Under the pieces are notes generated by a model that did not search any database, was not told the DNA's origin, and worked only from the letters and a program-made list of their open reading frames with translations. 32,000 nt of DNA. It comes from Gemmata obscuriglobus (GTDB lineage: Bacteria; Planctomycetota; Planctomycetia; Gemmatales; Gemmataceae). Shown in pieces: positions 5,524 to 16,652 of the stretch. The number at the start of each line of letters is the position of its first letter. Position 1 is the first letter of the stretch. A program made the translations under genes and the position numbers. The stretch lies in the NCBI RefSeq assembly GCF_008065095.1, contig NZ_CP042911.1, forward strand, positions 360,001-392,000, read 5' to 3'.

Positions 5524-6096
5524 ATGACGAAGATCGACGAACCGCGGTTGGAATCGGACCTCGGGTACCGGTTCGGCTACGTCGCGGGGTTCATGGGGTT
5601 CGGCCCCGACGACATCGCCGCCATTCACGGCGCCGCGCCGCTGCTGGCGCCGCTGGTGCCGGGGCTCGTGGACGCCGTGTACGATAAGCTGTTTCAGCAG
5701 GACGCGACGTGGCGCCACTTCCTTCCGCGCCAGTACGGGTACGACGGCAACGTGCCGGACACGCTCGAACACCTCAGAATGGATCACGCGCAGATCACCT
5801 TCCGCAAGCAGCACCTGGGGCGCTACCTCGCGGCGCTGGTGACCCGGCCCTACGACGCCAAGATGGTCGAGTACCTCGACATGGTGGGCAAGATGCACAC
5901 CCCGAAGGCCGGGAGCAAGGAGCTGAACGTGCCGTTGGTGCAGATGAACGCCTTGATGGGCTTTGTGAGCGACGCGCTGACCGCAACGGTTCTCGGGCTC
6001 AACTTGCCGCGCGACACCGAGGCGAGGACCCTTCGCGCGTTCGGCAAGCTGCTGTGGATTCAGAACGACCTGATCACCAGGCACTACCAAGGGTAA
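5524..6096 (+). CDS. Protoglobin-type globin domain protein
   Basis: The ORF opens with GTG at 5497; I prefer the ATG at 5524. It has the length and layout of single-domain protoglobins. A candidate proximal-His region is YLDMVGKMH. The C-terminal FGKLLWIQNDLITRHY resembles the protoglobin C-terminal helix. It is divergent from the Rrf2 gene. Confidence 0.78.
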   Translation: MTKIDEPRLESDLGYRFGYVAGFMGFGPDDIAAIHGAAPLLAPLVPGLVDAVYDKLFQQDATWRHFLPRQYGYDGNVPDTLEHLRMDHAQITFRKQHLGRYLAALVTRPYDAKMVEYLDMVGKMHTPKAGSKELNVPLVQMNALMGFVSDALTATVLGLNLPRDTEARTLRAFGKLLWIQNDLITRHYQG

Positions 6097-6097
6097 T

Positions 6098-6242
6098 GTG
6101 GAATCCGGAATGCGGAATTCGGAATTGAAGACAAGAGGCAGAGCGAACCGCGCCCGACGCGGGCGGAAATGCGGAACGCGGAATTGAAGCGAGGGCGAAC
6201 CCTCTGTCTTCAATTCCGCGTTCCGAATTCCGCGTTCCGAAC
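6098..6242. repeat. Family-1 composite palindrome (CGGAAT heptads), copy A, 1.5-copy nested form
   Basis: The two left-type arms are 6098-6138 (..ggaatgcggaattcggaattgaagacaagagg) and 6164-6195 (cggaaatgcggaacgcggaattgaagcgaggg). The single right arm is 6201-6242 (cctctgtcttcaattccgcgttccgaattccgcgttccgaac). cggaacgcggaattgaag pairs 18/18 with the right arm. It fills the gap between the protoglobin stop (6096) and the secDF stop (6246). Confidence 0.85.
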
Positions 6243-6245
6243 TTC

Positions 6246-9200
6246 TCAGCCTTCGACCACTTCCTCTTCCGTGGCGCCGGCGCCTTCTTCCTTATCGGTC
6301 GCGGCGGCCTCGTCCGGGGTAGCGGTGCCGTCCCGGCCCTCGCCGAGGAACAGCAAGAGCGGGCTGGCCACGAAGATCGAGCTGTAGGTGCTCACCAGCA
6401 CGCCGACCACCATCACGAACGCGAACAGGTGGACGCCCTCGCCGCCGAACGCGTACAGCACGATCGACGCCAGGAACACCGTCATCGAGGTCAGGATGGT
6501 GCGGCTCAGCGTCTGGTTCACGCTGTCGTTGATCATCTGCGGGGTGAGCTGCGGGTTCTTGCCGCGCACCTCGCGGAGCCGCGCGAAGTTCACGATGATC
6601 TCGTTCACCGAGTACCCGACCAGGGTGAGCAGAGCGGCGACCGTCGTCAGGTCGATCTTGAAGTCCTCAATGCCGAGGTGACTGAACCCCGGGATCATGT
6701 GCAGGTAGTGGCACACGGCGATCGCGCCGATGGTGAAGCACAGGTCGTGGACGAGGCAGATCACCGCCGCGAGGCCGAACGTCCAGTTCCCGAACCGGAA
6801 CCACAGGTACAGCAGGATCGCCACCCAGCTCGCGACGATCGCCATCATGGCCTTCTCGCGGGTGTCGGACGCGAGCTGGGTGTCGAACACCTCGAGCCGC
6901 TCCGGCTCGGGGGTGGCGTCGAACGCCCGCTTCGCCCCCGCGACGATCTCCTGGAGGGCCTTCAACTGGTCCGCACGGGCCTTCTGGTCGACGCCCGGCG
7001 CGTTCGCGGCGGACCCGATCAGCGAGAGGGCCTGGTTGCGCGACACGTCCAGCTTCATTTGCGAGAACCGCCCCTCCTTCGCCTCGCCGATGCCGGTGAG
7101 GGAGAAGTCGTCGGGCCCGCCGGCGCCGACCTTGCGGAACTCGCGCTCGAACAGCTCCTGCGTGAAGCTGCGCGACGTCGGCTTGTCGAAGTCGATCGTG
7201 ACGACGGGGCCGGCGATCGCCCCCGGGGTCATCGTCGCCCCGGACATGATCGAGTCGCCCTTCTCGTTCACGAGGAGGCGGTTCAGCGAGGTCTGCACCA
7301 GGTCGCGCTGCTTCTCGGTGGTACGGATGGTGAAGTAGCGGCTCTTGCCCATCTCGAACTGCTGGCCCGAGATGAACATCTGCTCCACCGACACGTCCGG
7401 GAGCTGGGCGGCCCGCTGCCGCACGTCCTCACGCATGTCCGCGTCCGTGCCGCCCTCGGGCTTGGCGGTAAGCGTCACCGTGGCGCGGGTGCCGTCCTCG
7501 TAGGTGACGGTGTAGATCCAGGTGTTCACCCGCTCGTCGCCGCTCGGGCGGTTCTCCCAGATGACCGCGTCGTCACCGGCCTTCAACGCGAGCCGCTTCT
7601 TCTGGGCCTCTTCGCCGAGCAACTCGCGGAACCCGTCCTTGCCGTCGGCGGTCTTCGTGAGGCCGCGCTCCTCGCCGTCCTTGAGCTTGCCGGCGAACAC
7701 GGTGCCGCCGCGGAAGTCGACGTTGAGCCCGGCCTCGCCGCGGACTACGAACACCGCCAGCCCCGCTACCGTCAGCACCGCGGTCAGCGGGAAGAAGATG
7801 TACCGCATCTTCATCGGGTGGAAGTTGGGGCGGGCGAACAGTTGCATCATCTTCAGGTCGGTCAGCCACTTCTTATGCAGCCAGAAGTCGAACATCAGCC
7901 GGGTCATGTACAGCGACGTGAAGAGGCTGATGACGAGGCCGACCGTGAGGCTGATCGCGAACCCCTTCAACTGGTCGTTGCCGAAGGTGTACAGCACGAT
8001 CGCGGTGAAGATGCTCGTCAGGTGGGTGTCGATGATCGTGAGGAACGCCCGCTCGTACCCGTTGCGGAGCGCGGTGGCGATGTTGGCGCCCCGGTTCCGC
8101 TCCTCGCGGAGCCGCTCGTAGATGAGGACGTTGGCGTCCACCGCCATGCCCAGCGTGAGCACCAGCCCGGCGAGCCCGGGGAGCGTGAACGCGGCGTTCA
8201 CCGCGACCATGAACCCGATGGTGAGCAGCAGGTTGGCGAACAGCGCGACGCACGCGACCAGCCCGGCGAACCGGTAGTACACGAGCATGAACGCGAGCAC
8301 CGCGACGAACGCCCCGCCGACCGCGGTAGTCCCGCGGACGATCGTGTCCTGGCCGAGGGTCGGCCCGATGGTGTTCTCGCTCACCGGCTTCTCACGCAGC
8401 TCGGCCGACAGCGCCCCGCTCTTGAGGATCTGGACCAACCGGTCCACGCTCTTGCGGTCGAACTTGCCGGTGATCTGCCCGCGGTTGCCGATCTCGCTCT
8501 GGAGCGTCGGGGCAGACACTACTCGGTCGTCGAGCAGGATCGCGAGGTTGCGGGTGGTGCTGCCGGTGGGCTTGTTGCGGCGGGTGATCTTGGTGAACTG
8601 CTGGCCGCCGGCCGTGTTGAACTGGAACTCGACGCACGGGCTGAGGCTCTTCGGGTCGGTGCCCGCGCTGGCGCTGATCGTGATCTGGCCGTCGTTGCCG
8701 CCCACGCGGAGCGAGTCCTCCGGCGACACGCGGGTGAGCACGAAGTACTCGTACTTCTTCCGGTTCACCAGGGCCTCGATCTCGGCGTCGGTCTTACCCG
8801 GGTTCTCGCCCTTGATCCGCGCGGCGTCCGCTTCTTCCTTGGCGAGTTGCTCGGTGCTGACGACCTTGCGGCTGAACAGGAGCATGCTGCAGTTGACGTA
8901 GTCGGCCGGGGCGTTGTCGCGCACCGCGACCGGCTTGTCGCGCTGGCCGGCGAGGACGCCCCACAGCCCGCCGGCGCCCTCGCTGGCGTTGCTGAGGCCG
9001 AGGCTCTCGCGCTGCTCCGGCCCGATCTCGGACCACACGTAGCGGACGCGGGCCTTGCTCTCGCCGATGTCCACGTTGAACTCGTCGGCGGGCGCCTCGG
9101 GCGGCAGCCCCTTGCGGGCGCGGTCCTCGAGTTCGCCGGCGGACTTGCCCTCGATCAACTGCCGGGCGGCGATCAGGCCGGCCTGGTCGTCGATGCCGTT

Positions 9201-10129: not shown

Positions 10130-11239
10130 CTAGGAAGCGGGAGTCCACCGGGCAAGGCAACCGGCCCGGAACTCGGCGAACCGTCCGGCCCGGATGGCGT
10201 CCCGGGCGCCCGCCATTAAGTTCAAGTAGAAACTAATGTTATGGAGGCTCAGCAGGGTCGGGCCGAGCATCTCCTCGGCGGCGAACAGGTGGTGCAGGTA
10301 ACCCCGCGAGTAGTTCGCACAGCAGTAACAGCCGCAACCGGACATCAGCGGTTTCGGATCTCGCCGGTGCTTCGCGTTCCGCAACCGCACCGGTCCCTCG
10401 TCGGTGAACGCCAGGGCGTTGCGCCCGTTGCGGGTGGGCATCACGCAGTCGAACATGTCGATGCCCGAAGCGACACCCGCGAGCAGGTCTTGTGGCCGCC
10501 CCACCCCCATCAGGTACCGGGGTTTGTGCTCGGGCAGGCACGCCGCGCACGCCGGCAGCGCGGCGTGCATCGCCTCGGGCGCCTCCCCGACGCTGAAGCC
10601 GCCGAGGGCGTAGCCGGGGAAGTCCATCGCCACCAGCTCTTTCGCGCACTCGGCGCGCAGGTCGAGGTTCAGCCCGCCCTGCACGATGGCGAACTGCGCC
10701 TGATCGGGCCGCGAGTGGTGCCGCTTGCACCGCTCCGCCCACTTGATGCTGCGGGTCACCGCGCGGCGGATGACCTCGGGCGCGCCGTCGGCGGGCGGGC
10801 ACTCGTCGAGCACCATCGCGATGTCGGAGCCGAGGTTCTGCTGGATCTCGACCGCCCGCTCCGGTGTGAGTTCAAGCGGAGAGCCGTCGATGTGCGATTT
10901 GAACTTCGCCCCGTGGTCGGTGATCTTCACCTGCCCCGCGAGGCTGAACACCTGGAACCCGCCGGAGTCCGTGAGGATCGGGCGGTTCCAGTTCATGAAC
11001 GTGTGGAGCCCGCCCAGGTCGCGCACGATCTCGTCGCCCGGGCGCAGCGCGAGGTGGTAGGTGTTCCCGAGGAGGATGTGCGCGCCGGCGTCGCGGACCA
11101 TCTCCGGGGTGAGCCCCTTGACGGTGCCCTGCGTGCCAACCGGCATGAACGCGGGCGTGGACACGTCGCCGTGCGGGGTGTGGACCGTCCCGGCGCGGGC
11201 GGCGCCGTCGGTGGCGTGGAGCGTGAAGGAAATTGCCAT
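10130..11239 (-). CDS. tgt: Queuine tRNA-ribosyltransferase
   Basis: 369 aa. The N-terminus [34 protein letters not shown] aligns with E. coli Tgt (TDGRARRG...ETPCFMPVGTYGTVKGM). A Zn-site region [17 protein letters not shown] is present. Confidence 0.96.
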
Positions 11240-11242
11240 AAC

Positions 11243-11355
11243 GAATGCGGAATGCGGAGTTCGGAATGCGGAGTTGAAGGCAGAAAGGCGAACCGACGGA
11301 CAGAGTGCTGTGTTCTGTCTTCAATTCCGCGTTCCGAACTCCGCATTCCGCATTT
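11243..11355. repeat. Family-1 composite palindrome, copy B (archetype)
   Basis: The left arm 11243-11285 is five heptads (GAATGCG GAATGCG GAGTTCG GAATGCG GAGTTGA) plus aggcagaa. The right arm 11313-11355 is its reverse complement at 39/43 positions by hand count. The 27-nt loop contains ggcgaacc. Confidence 0.9.
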
Positions 11356-11362
11356 CAAAAGG

Positions 11363-12739
11363 TCAGTCCCCGCGGAGCTTGAGGTTGAACTGCTGGAGCC
11401 GCTCACGCACCTCGGTCAGCGAGGTCTGACCGAAGTTCTTCGCCTCCAGCAGCTCGTCGGCGGTGCGCTGGACGAGTTCGCCCAGCGTGCCGATGTTGAG
11501 GCGGTTCATGCACTTCCGGGCGCGAACCGAGAGGTTCAGGTCGCTCACCGGCTTGCCGAGCGTGGCCTGCTCCTCCGGGCTGAGGTTCTGCTGCGGCCGG
11601 TACCGGAACTCGTACTGCTGCCCCTGGTCCAGCGACTGCCCGATCCGCAGCCCCTTCGTCACCATGATGGCGCGGATCTCGTCGAGCGAGGTCTCGCCAA
11701 AATTCTTGCTCGCCAGGAGCTGCGGCTCGGTGACGCGGGTGAGGTCGCCGAGCGTCCGGATGTTCATCCGCTTCAAGCAGTTGCGGCTCCGCACCGACAG
11801 CTCGAAGTCGGTGATCGGGATCTCGAGCACGACGCGGTTGGCCTGGGTGAGCTGCTCGTCCTCCGGGCTGTAGTGCATCGTGAGGGACGCTTCGGAGTCC
11901 TTCACGAACAGCTTCGCGCGCTCGTCGCGCGGGTCGGCCTTGGCGAGCCGCCGGTAGCAGTCCGCGGCCTTGTCGTACATGTCGTTGTCTTCGTACAGCA
12001 CGCCGAGGTTGTACAGCACGCCCTTGCCGACCGGCGGGTACTTCAGGCACCGCTCGTAGTAGCCGATGGCCTCGTGGTCGTTGCCCTGCTGGTCGTTCAG
12101 GAACCCGAGCCGGAACAGCGAGGCGGAGTGCCGCGGCTCCAGCTCGACGGCCCGCTCGTAGTACTTCGCGGCCCGGGGGGTGTCGCCCTCGGCCTCGGCC
12201 AACGAGCCTTCCTGGTAGTAGTACTCGGCGTTGTGGGCGGCGGCGTCCTTCAGCTTCGTGAGGATGGCCTTGGATTCGCCCACGTGCCCCTGGAGGCGCA
12301 GCACCCCGGCGCGCTGGAGCTGCACCTGCTGGGCCGCGTAGCCGGACTTCTCGGCCCGCTCGAACGCCTTCACGGCCTCGCCGTAGTGGTCGGTGGTGTC
12401 GGACTGGTCCTCGCTGTACTGGCGGGACTGCCCCAGGGCGACGTGCGCTTGGCCCAGGAAGAACGCCGCCAGCGGGCCTTCGGCCTTGTTGAGGTGGTCG
12501 ATGGCGCTGCGGACGTGGCCGAGGAAGTAGCTGGCCACCCCGATTTTCAGGTGGACCTTCTTCTGCTGGGGCGGCGCCGCGACCGCGAGCCGCTTGTTGA
12601 GTGTGTCGAGGATGTCTTTGAGGTTCCGGACCTGCGGGCCGCCCTGCGCCAGCCCCTCGCGGAGCCGACCGACCATGCCGCCTTCGAAGTCCTCGCGCTC
12701 GACCAAAAGGGCGCGCAGATCAATGAGAGATTCCGTCAC
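11363..12739 (-). CDS. TPR-repeat protein with two C-terminal RNA polymerase alpha-CTD-like (helix-hairpin-helix) domains
   Basis: 458 aa. The TPR-like region covers about aa 60-280 (AEYYYQEGSLAEAEGD.., AIGYYERCLKY.., YDKAADCYRRLAKADP). There are two copies of the alpha-CTD pattern. The first is FELSVRSRNCLKRMNIRTLGDLTRVTEPQLLASKNFGETSLDEIRAIM. The second is LNLSVRARKCMNRLNIGTLGELVQRTADELLEAKNFGQTSLTEVRERL. Compare E. coli RpoA [48 protein letters not shown]. Confidence 0.88.
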   Translation of the reverse strand: MTESLIDLRALLVEREDFEGGMVGRLREGLAQGGPQVRNLKDILDTLNKRLAVAAPPQQKKVHLKIGVASYFLGHVRSAIDHLNKAEGPLAAFFLGQAHVALGQSRQYSEDQSDTTDHYGEAVKAFERAEKSGYAAQQVQLQRAGVLRLQGHVGESKAILTKLKDAAAHNAEYYYQEGSLAEAEGDTPRAAKYYERAVELEPRHSASLFRLGFLNDQQGNDHEAIGYYERCLKYPPVGKGVLYNLGVLYEDNDMYDKAADCYRRLAKADPRDERAKLFVKDSEASLTMHYSPEDEQLTQANRVVLEIPITDFELSVRSRNCLKRMNIRTLGDLTRVTEPQLLASKNFGETSLDEIRAIMVTKGLRIGQSLDQGQQYEFRYRPQQNLSPEEQATLGKPVSDLNLSVRARKCMNRLNIGTLGELVQRTADELLEAKNFGQTSLTEVRERLQQFNLKLRGD

Positions 12740-16538: not shown

Positions 16539-16652
16539 CGGAAATGTGGGGTGCGGAATTCGGCATGCAGAAGTGAGCACCGGCGAGCCGAACCGATTCC
16601 TGTCTCTCATTCCCTGTCTGTTTTCGTTCCGAATTCCGCACTCCGCACTCCC
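16539..16652. repeat. Family-1 composite palindrome, copy C (degenerate)
   Basis: The left part ..gtggggtgcggaattcggcatgcagaag.. pairs with the right part ..cgttccgaattccgcactccgcactcc. The core gtgcggaattcgg is shared. The loop contains gagccgaacc (compare gcgaacc in copies A and B). It fills the GNAT-glgC gap and ends 11 nt before the glgC ATG. Confidence 0.7.

Follow-up and report, generated by a model that had tools for sequence, protein, structure and literature searches.

The window analyzed here is a stretch of 32,000 nucleotides from the genome of Gemmata obscuriglobus (hereafter G000; one contig of 8,999,201 bp, 67.4% GC), and the feature under study fills the gap between two of its minus-strand genes. 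The downstream gene is tgt (Pfam PF01702, 1.5e-156), whose start codon is sound since the N-terminus of the encoded protein aligns from residue 1-4 in relatives. The upstream gene (window positions 11363-12739) encodes a protein with TPR repeats followed by two RNA_pol_A_CTD domains (Pfam). This TPR-then-two-alpha-CTD architecture is unusual, and the gene is a neighbour of tgt throughout most of the genus and also in two genomes of the neighbouring family.

The tgt ATG (11239) and the upstream stop codon (11363-11365) are separated by 123 nt. A palindrome at 11243-11355 takes up 113 of these, leaving 3 nt on the tgt side and 7 nt on the side of the stop codon (Table 1). A first-pass annotation made from the DNA letters alone had described this geometry, with the foot of the stem 3 nt from the tgt start codon, and the coordinates agree with it. 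Reading of the sequence also confirmed the palindrome, which has 43-nt arms composed of CGGA(A/G)(T/C)(G/T) heptads. Positions 11243-11277 read GAATGCG GAATGCG GAGTTCG GAATGCG GAGTTGA, after which AGGCAGAA extends up to 11285. The five-heptad left arm and the complementarity of the right arm are thus as first described, and a repeat search recovered both arms (11244-11285 and 11313-11354; 42 nt, 93% complementary, spacing of 27 nt).

Table 1. Features of the tgt gap and further Family-1 copies in the 32,000-nt window (window coordinates).
Feature	Position	Strand	Remarks
tgt start codon	11237..11239	-	3 nt from the foot of the stem
Left (5') arm	11243..11285	.	five tandem CGGA(A/G)(T/C)(G/T)-type heptads, with the inner junction GGAGTTGAAGGCAGAA at the end
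Loop	11286..11312	.	27 nt, copy-specific; weak GCGAACC likeness to neighbouring copies only
Right (3') arm	11313..11355	.	reverse complement of the left arm at 39/43 positions; mismatches all transitions
Stop codon (TGA) of the upstream TPR / 2x alpha-CTD gene	11363..11365	-	7 nt away from the opposite stem foot
Solo left-type Family-1 arm	6093..6144	.	directly adjoins the next copy
Complete Family-1 copy	6167..6246	.	in a convergent gap
Degenerate Family-1 copy	16541..16651	.	fills a 126-nt tandem gap

Four mismatches were counted between the arms, each being G.T when read on the plus strand and A.C when read on the minus (mRNA) strand, which is the mismatch type noted at first. In this copy they weaken the hairpin on the sense strand: the predicted fold of the minus (sense) strand has an energy of -70.7 kcal/mol (z -11.1), and that of the plus (antisense) strand one of -83.2 kcal/mol (z -13.7). 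An Rfam scan of the whole window returned no family at gathering score, a terminator consensus scan of positions 10900-11700 found no Rho-independent terminator (the stem is trailed by TTT only), and the element itself gave no match to the sigma-70 promoter consensus. The lack of a Shine-Dalgarno sequence before tgt, to which the first-pass annotation had drawn attention, is real but not unusual in this genome, where ~38% of predicted genes have a 4-mer Shine-Dalgarno core; the 16S tail of G000 is canonical.

The tgt-gap palindrome belongs to a dispersed, gap-filling family

An iterated nhmmer search, run to convergence, identified 56 loci of the same kind in the G000 genome. We refer to this family as Family-1. 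Each copy consists of 2-5 heptads followed by an inner junction rich in A (GGAATTGAAGACAG-type) and a loop, and then by the mirror image of the first half, with outer ends AAATGCGG...CCGCATTT. The heptad logo is CGGA followed by A/G, T/C and G/T, with CGGAATG, CGGAACG, CGGAATT, CGGAGTG and CGGAGTT as the commonest units. The polarity of the arms is fixed: the GGA-type arm is always 5', with 18 forward-then-reverse pairs against none in the reverse-then-forward order. Loops, on the other hand, are unrelated between copies, their loop-to-loop local alignment scores being at background. The loop motif GGCGAACC, which had been taken as common to the copies in the window, therefore represents a weak local likeness and no family feature; it is exact in one other copy and matches at 7/8 positions in the rest, and the loops are only weakly alike overall.

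Some copies occur in compound arrangements. In the window, a 149-nt convergent gap contains a solo left-type arm and, 22 nt later, a complete shorter copy (6093-6246). Outside the window, a 237-nt gap contains a complete copy and, after it, two extra right-type arms (G000:C1:1442904-1443137).

The position of the copies relative to genes was determined with our own codon-usage gene caller (6,892 genes, 80% coding), a crude tool which supplied all start codons except that of tgt. Family-1 is intergenic in 49 of 56 cases (p = 5e-27), and the seven copies overlapping gene calls may be read-through artefacts of the caller. The 49 intergenic copies divide into 18 in ++ gaps and 18 in -- gaps, 11 between convergent genes and only 2 between divergent genes, compared with the 25-26% expected for the latter (p = 5e-5 to 1e-4). 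The intergenic bias about which the first-pass annotation had asked is thus present, as a location 3' of genes, and the copies are not scattered through coding DNA. In tandem gaps, the median distance is 3 nt from the stop codon to the beginning of the element and 7 nt from its end to the following start codon (34 copies, HMM bounds). With strict stem bounds, both distances are at most 15 nt in 62% of 16 Family-1 copies. Among the other strong palindromes of tandem gaps, 232 in number, the share is 5%; these lie 19 nt from the stop and 60 nt from the start, and look more terminator-like. Copies also cluster locally, since 17 of 53 have a neighbour less than 10 kb away where 5.7 would be expected.

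These results bear on one of the functions first proposed for the hairpin, an attenuator. Such a tgt-specific attenuator or riboswitch-like leader would control expression of the queuosine pathway, and it would suit an element lying directly against the tgt start codon in a gap that keeps some hairpin across the order. As the tgt-gap element is one of ~56 copies of a gap-filling family, it is not a tgt-specific regulator. The same element occupies ~50 unrelated gene contexts, the hairpins in the tgt gap of other species are other palindromes of unrelated sequence (see below), the loop is unconserved, and we found no Rfam match, leader peptide or alternative pairing. We therefore consider this explanation very improbable, and for tgt itself the hairpin has an ordinary meaning, as it is not specific to this gene.

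The two arms of a copy match each other, with no preference for either strand

The first-pass annotation had called for stem-preserving covariation, and this is present. Arms of the same copy pair better than arms taken from different copies (mean score 18.1 vs 13.5), and the heptad variants are complementary across the arms in 56% of 59 in-phase pairs, compared with 17.5% after shuffling (0 of 5000 shuffles reached the observed value). It had also been suggested that G.U pairs in the tgt-gap copy hint at a plus-strand RNA. This suggestion did not hold for the family: among 39 co-directional copies there is no strand bias, the sense strand folding better in 21 and the antisense strand in 18 (p = 0.97). 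Because no strand is preferred, the covariation fits either an RNA hairpin on the transcribed strand or upkeep of the palindrome at the level of DNA.

Template switching is well known as a source of mutations in quasi-palindromes. In Family-1, copies may be renewed at the DNA level by slippage of whole heptads combined with template switching between the two arms, and the arms would therefore stay complementary without selection acting on one RNA strand.

Hairpins persist at the same sites while their sequence families turn over

To place these copies in an evolutionary context, we compared G000 with its relatives. Family-1 is present in 15 of 18 genomes of the genus, in numbers that range unevenly from 0 to ~60 BLAST matches and do not track relatedness; it was not found in 12 genomes of the neighbouring family. 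Between G000 and its closest relative G004 (93-98% DNA identity at the loci), all 20 copies compared are located at the same sites. Mismatch rates between the two genomes are 5.7% in the elements, 7.3% in the remaining intergenic DNA, 7.9% for third codon positions and 1.8% for positions 1+2 of codons, and within the elements the arms (5.1%) and the loops (5.6%) do not differ. Since arms and loops diverge alike, and only mildly more slowly than third-codon sites, constraint is weak and Family-1 copies drift close to neutrally. The changes between both genomes include 7-nt indels in two copies (L042 and L053), other indels in two more (L035 and L044), heptad-variant switches, and double changes that compensate each other (one or two cases). 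The two arm changes specific to G000 in the tgt copy are uncompensated relative to G004.

The tgt gap illustrates what occurs over longer distances. G004 carries the same element as G000 in this gap, whereas the gap of G015 contains an AAGACA-rich palindrome of unrelated sequence, and those of G017 and G012 contain GC-rich hairpins. A palindrome of other heptads (GAGGACA/CTGTCCT) is found in G018 and G001, and a perfect GC-rich palindrome in G013 and G006. In G021, which belongs to another family, the gap contains yet another palindrome, with the ATG at its end.

We extended this comparison to 21 Family-1 loci, whose flanks on either side were traced in G017, G012 and G018, yielding 52 orthologous gaps. 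None of these is empty (61-543 nt), and 5 retain a Family-1-like element. An RNAfold census of all gaps was non-discriminating because DNA of 67% GC folds everywhere, and an ungapped Watson-Crick inverted-repeat score was used in its place. By this measure, 18 of the 47 gaps lacking Family-1 (38%), covering 12 of the 21 loci, hold a strong ungapped inverted repeat. The background in G000 is ~10% for tandem gaps, 28% for convergent gaps, 1.6% for divergent gaps and 0% for coding controls, so that 18 of 47 compares with a background of 12% (binomial p = 4e-6, a value computed over related genomes that are not independent). Several of the replacement palindromes are built from other heptads (GGTTCCA, GGGGTGA, CCACTCA and AAGTCGT), some with reversed polarity. 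The hairpin slot therefore persists while the sequence family occupying it turns over.

Arrays of the Family-1 type share a core and a polarity within the genome and across phyla

Period 7 stands out in G000, with 219 arrays (74% intergenic), compared with 19 arrays of period 8 and 4 of period 10. The abundant heptad units are nearly all of the form GGAAY-NN (73 arrays, as against 0-3 for nine permuted or substituted cores).

One other family among them, with GGAACYT heptads, has the opposite arm polarity and a conserved interior of ~60 nt (G000:C1:1161651-1161746, 1391420-1391515 and 3513439-3513548, plus seven more copies, all outside the window). It looks MITE-like, since the conserved interior is found in both orientations. 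Given that its polarity is opposite to that of Family-1, polarity is a property of each family, and a universal rule by which the purine-rich arm comes first was rejected. The GGAACYT heptads resemble the terminal repeat of a 1.26-kb insertion sequence (GTTTCAAGTTGG vs GTTCCAAGTTCC). This insertion sequence (for instance G000:C1:1918305-1919566, outside the window) encodes a DDE_Tnp_1 transposase of ~406 aa between terminal repeats CAGTAGTTTCAAGTTGG, is present in ~21 copies with 99.8-100% identity, and duplicates GRAWTC-like targets. One of its copies lies in the left arm of a Family-1 copy, which it entered once G000 and G004 had separated. We considered whether this insertion, beside the Family-1 copy at 1919567, reflected targeting of palindromes, and rejected it: the insertion sequence uses GRAWTC sites generally as targets, and only 1 of 21 copies lies in a Family-1 arm.

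Beyond the genus, we scanned 185,579 species genomes for three exact GGARYKC units followed by GGA. The scan returned at least 120 matches, where a rough estimate gives ~2 by chance. The matches listed include Acidobacteriota, Verrucomicrobiota, Gemmatimonadota, Chloroflexota, Bacillota, Cyanobacteriota, Nitrospirota and Planctomycetota, among others. Among those listed with a partner array, the GGA-type arm is 5' in 31 and 3' in 1, and some copies among the matches listed have a similar inner junction. Arrays situated 500-700 nt apart in two other phyla were considered as possible carriers of a transposase and rejected, as they flank ordinary genes. No recurrent neighbour gene was found among the 120 cross-phylum matches listed beyond a UvrA-like gene in six, located within 3 kb (L121, L126, L137, L145, L168 and L208). 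Several of these loci come from related Clostridia, so the proximity to UvrA probably reflects one orthologous locus and no functional link.

A fixed core and a fixed polarity are properties that might be expected of an array bound by a protein at the DNA level, with the heptads as iterated sites and the inverted arrays setting the direction of binding. Parallels for such an arrangement are the 7-bp repeats to which the omega repressor of plasmid pSM19035 binds, and the subterminal sites of transposases. Consistent with this explanation, the CGGA core of Family-1 is fixed and its remaining positions are restricted, GGAAY-NN units far outnumber the altered cores, polarity is 18:0 in the genome and 31:1 among the cross-phylum matches listed, and the terminal repeat of an insertion sequence in G000 resembles the other heptad family (GGAACYT). 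Nevertheless, no candidate protein was found. Arms evolve no more slowly than loops, the many heptad units that relatives carry at the same sites would need many different proteins, and bound sites would make the register-specific complementarity of the arms unnecessary. On this evidence, a protein-binding array appears distinctly unlikely.

No transposase link emerged for Family-1

The first-pass annotation had also proposed a REP- or MITE-like selfish element. Of this proposal, the part that stands is a dispersed, REP-like family of ~56 copies; a classical MITE is unsupported. Four matches to PF01797 (Y1 transposase) are present in G000, none of which lies within 700 nt of a Family-1 array. 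The correlation between Y1 counts and Family-1 matches over the 18 genus genomes is loose (rho 0.58), and no Family-1 copy accompanies the five Y1 genes of G015. A RAYT link was rejected on these grounds, namely the lack of a flanked Y1 gene and the loose correlation in the genus. Classical MITE status likewise found no support, given that Family-1 has no conserved interior, no larger parent element bounded by its arms, and no presence/absence difference in the 20 loci compared. Target-site duplications were looked for at Family-1 copies by eye only, and none was seen.

A separate GTAG-tagged palindrome, GTAGCACAGGGCG, is present in G000 as 28 exact copies, mostly arranged as inverted pairs ~100-140 nt apart. 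It flanks the best Y1 gene (2028396-2028734) on both sides (G000:C1:2028220-2028963, outside the window), so that this genome has a genuine REP/RAYT-like system, from which Family-1 stands apart. The same motif is present in an orthologous gap of G017.

The proposal can also be taken more broadly, as a selfish or neutral DNA palindrome without host function that survives only where it is harmless, that is, at gene ends and tight operon junctions. Such palindromes would have spread, or arisen by slippage and arm-to-arm template switching, with new palindromes preferentially inserting into old ones or replacing them; a perfect hairpin would loop out, leaving the stop and start codons adjacent. 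We regard this explanation, the main rival of the reading put forward below, as possible though somewhat doubtful. It would account for the near-neutral divergence with arms equal to loops, the uncompensated decay in the tgt copy itself, pairing without strand bias, and a copy number that varies from 0 to ~60 BLAST matches in one genus without tracking relatedness. It would also fit the local clustering (17 copies against 5.7 expected), the directional arrays of the same kind in many phyla, and the replacement of Family-1 at the same site by families of opposite polarity. Against it, no mobilising gene emerged (no nearby Y1, no parent element, and no recurrent neighbour among the cross-phylum matches listed), the 20 loci compared with G004 show no gain or loss, no obvious target-site duplication was visible by eye, and the loops are unique to each copy, which copy-and-paste does not predict. 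In addition, these gaps retain a hairpin across the genus and, in the case of tgt, beyond it.

A possible role at gene ends and intercistronic junctions

Based on the sequence comparisons described above, the reading that we put forward, with close to an even chance of being right, is that the tgt-gap element is a REP-like hairpin of gene ends or intercistronic junctions. It occupies a conserved slot, where it would serve as a partial terminator or a 3'-end barrier and would cover the initiation region of tgt. According to this model, the element would be transcribed together with the upstream gene and fold as a very stable RNA hairpin, which would form the 3'-end barrier or partial terminator of the upstream message. 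Because its 3' foot lies 3 nt from the AUG, the tgt initiation region would be buried by the hairpin. For its translation, tgt would then rely on read-through and on ribosomes that complete the upstream gene; such ribosomes would melt the base of the stem and end up beside the tgt start codon. Several results speak against this RNA-hairpin model, namely the lack of a canonical terminator or promoter, pairing that does not favour the transcribed strand, mismatches that weaken the sense-strand hairpin in the tgt copy, weak constraint, and the uncompensated arm changes of this copy. Moreover, a plain need for a hairpin leaves the conserved GGAAY core and the fixed polarity unexplained.

These two properties would find a place in a more speculative proposal, by which GGAAY-NN palindromes form one cross-phylum directional system, made or renewed by a putative sequence-specific machinery and, in Gemmata, kept specifically at translationally coupled junctions. 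The machinery could be a mobile-element enzyme or a host factor, and the hairpin would join stop and start codons so that ~100 nt become 'invisible' to coupled ribosomes. Taken as a whole, with all of its parts, we consider this proposal unlikely.

Heptamer repeats are over-represented in many bacterial genomes, and Family-1 provides a clean, countable case of them: a fixed core, a polarity maintained across phyla, exact filling of the space from stop to start, and turnover of families at a conserved site. If the hairpins set transcript ends or enforce coupling, they would constitute a general level at which operons are organised in Planctomycetes and further soil bacteria. A selfish nature would point to a new way of generating or moving DNA.

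Comparison with known repeat systems

Several known repeat systems share properties with Family-1. The REP, BIME and REPIN sequences of Proteobacteria are mobilised by RAYT Y1 transposases, and the roles proposed for REP sequences include protection of mRNA 3' ends and attenuation. Like them, Family-1 consists of dispersed extragenic imperfect palindromes located within operons or at their ends and avoiding divergent promoter regions. Unlike REP sequences, it lacks a GTAG/CGTC tag, its arms are tandem-heptad arrays of ~40 nt and thus much longer, and it flanks no RAYT gene. With MITEs it shares a length of ~100 bp, terminal inverted repeats, multiple copies and an intergenic location, but its interior is unconserved, no parent has the same ends, and no insertion polymorphism was found in the 20 loci compared with G004.

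Two systems of heptamer repeats were compared as well. TAACTGA heptamers occur in Beggiatoaceae, Cyanobacteria and Bacteroidetes as intergenic sets of 2-6 units lying upstream of start codons at a distance of a few nucleotides (MacGregor, 2015; PMC4679880). Their spread across phyla is patchy and has no known mechanism, and 169 direct sets were described along with one indirect set (PMC4679880). Family-1 resembles them as intergenic heptamer arrays near start codons with a patchy distribution across phyla; it differs in forming inverted hairpin pairs tied to the preceding stop codon, whereas TAACTGA units are nearly always direct repeats upstream of starts.

The closest system is that of the GGGAATC heptamers of Xanthomonas, which are ~90% intergenic and form arrays of ~4 units (Rehm et al., 2015; PMC4692102), with a mean distance of 28 nt to the ORF upstream and 160 nt to the following one. 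Each genome holds 70-75 convergent pairs of plus- and minus-strand arrays, capable of forming stem-loops and close to stop codons. These repeats have no link to insertion sequences, and related species carry the same repeat type at differing lengths. Transcript starts and stops tend to fall at these repeats, and their function was left open (PMC4692102). An excess of heptamer repeats had been noted in a 2007 survey, as cited by the same authors (PMC4692102).

Family-1 shares with the Xanthomonas pairs a 7-nt unit, a GGAAT core, an intergenic location hugging the stop codon, inverted pairing and the lack of a link to insertion sequences. The differences are that its units are GGAATGC / GGAATTC / GGAACGC, that nearly all of its copies are paired palindromes, that it abuts the next start codon (median 7 nt, compared with ~160 nt to the next ORF in Xanthomonas), and that arrays of its type are found in many phyla with fixed polarity. 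The G-quadruplex interpretation discussed for Xanthomonas (PMC4692102) is inapplicable to Family-1, because its units carry only GG. The first-pass annotation knew of no formal description of the family. For the class this no longer holds, as intergenic heptameric repeats forming inverted pairs by stop codons have been described (PMC4692102); on this particular heptad no paper was found, a literature search for GGAATGCGGAATGC giving none with relevant context. Family-1 displays the features of inverted heptameric simple sequence repeats, including tandem units (five per arm in the tgt-gap copy), proximity to stop codons, convergent pairs and changes in unit number. The best reading is that the tgt-gap element falls within the intergenic inverted heptamer repeats, with REP-like behaviour.
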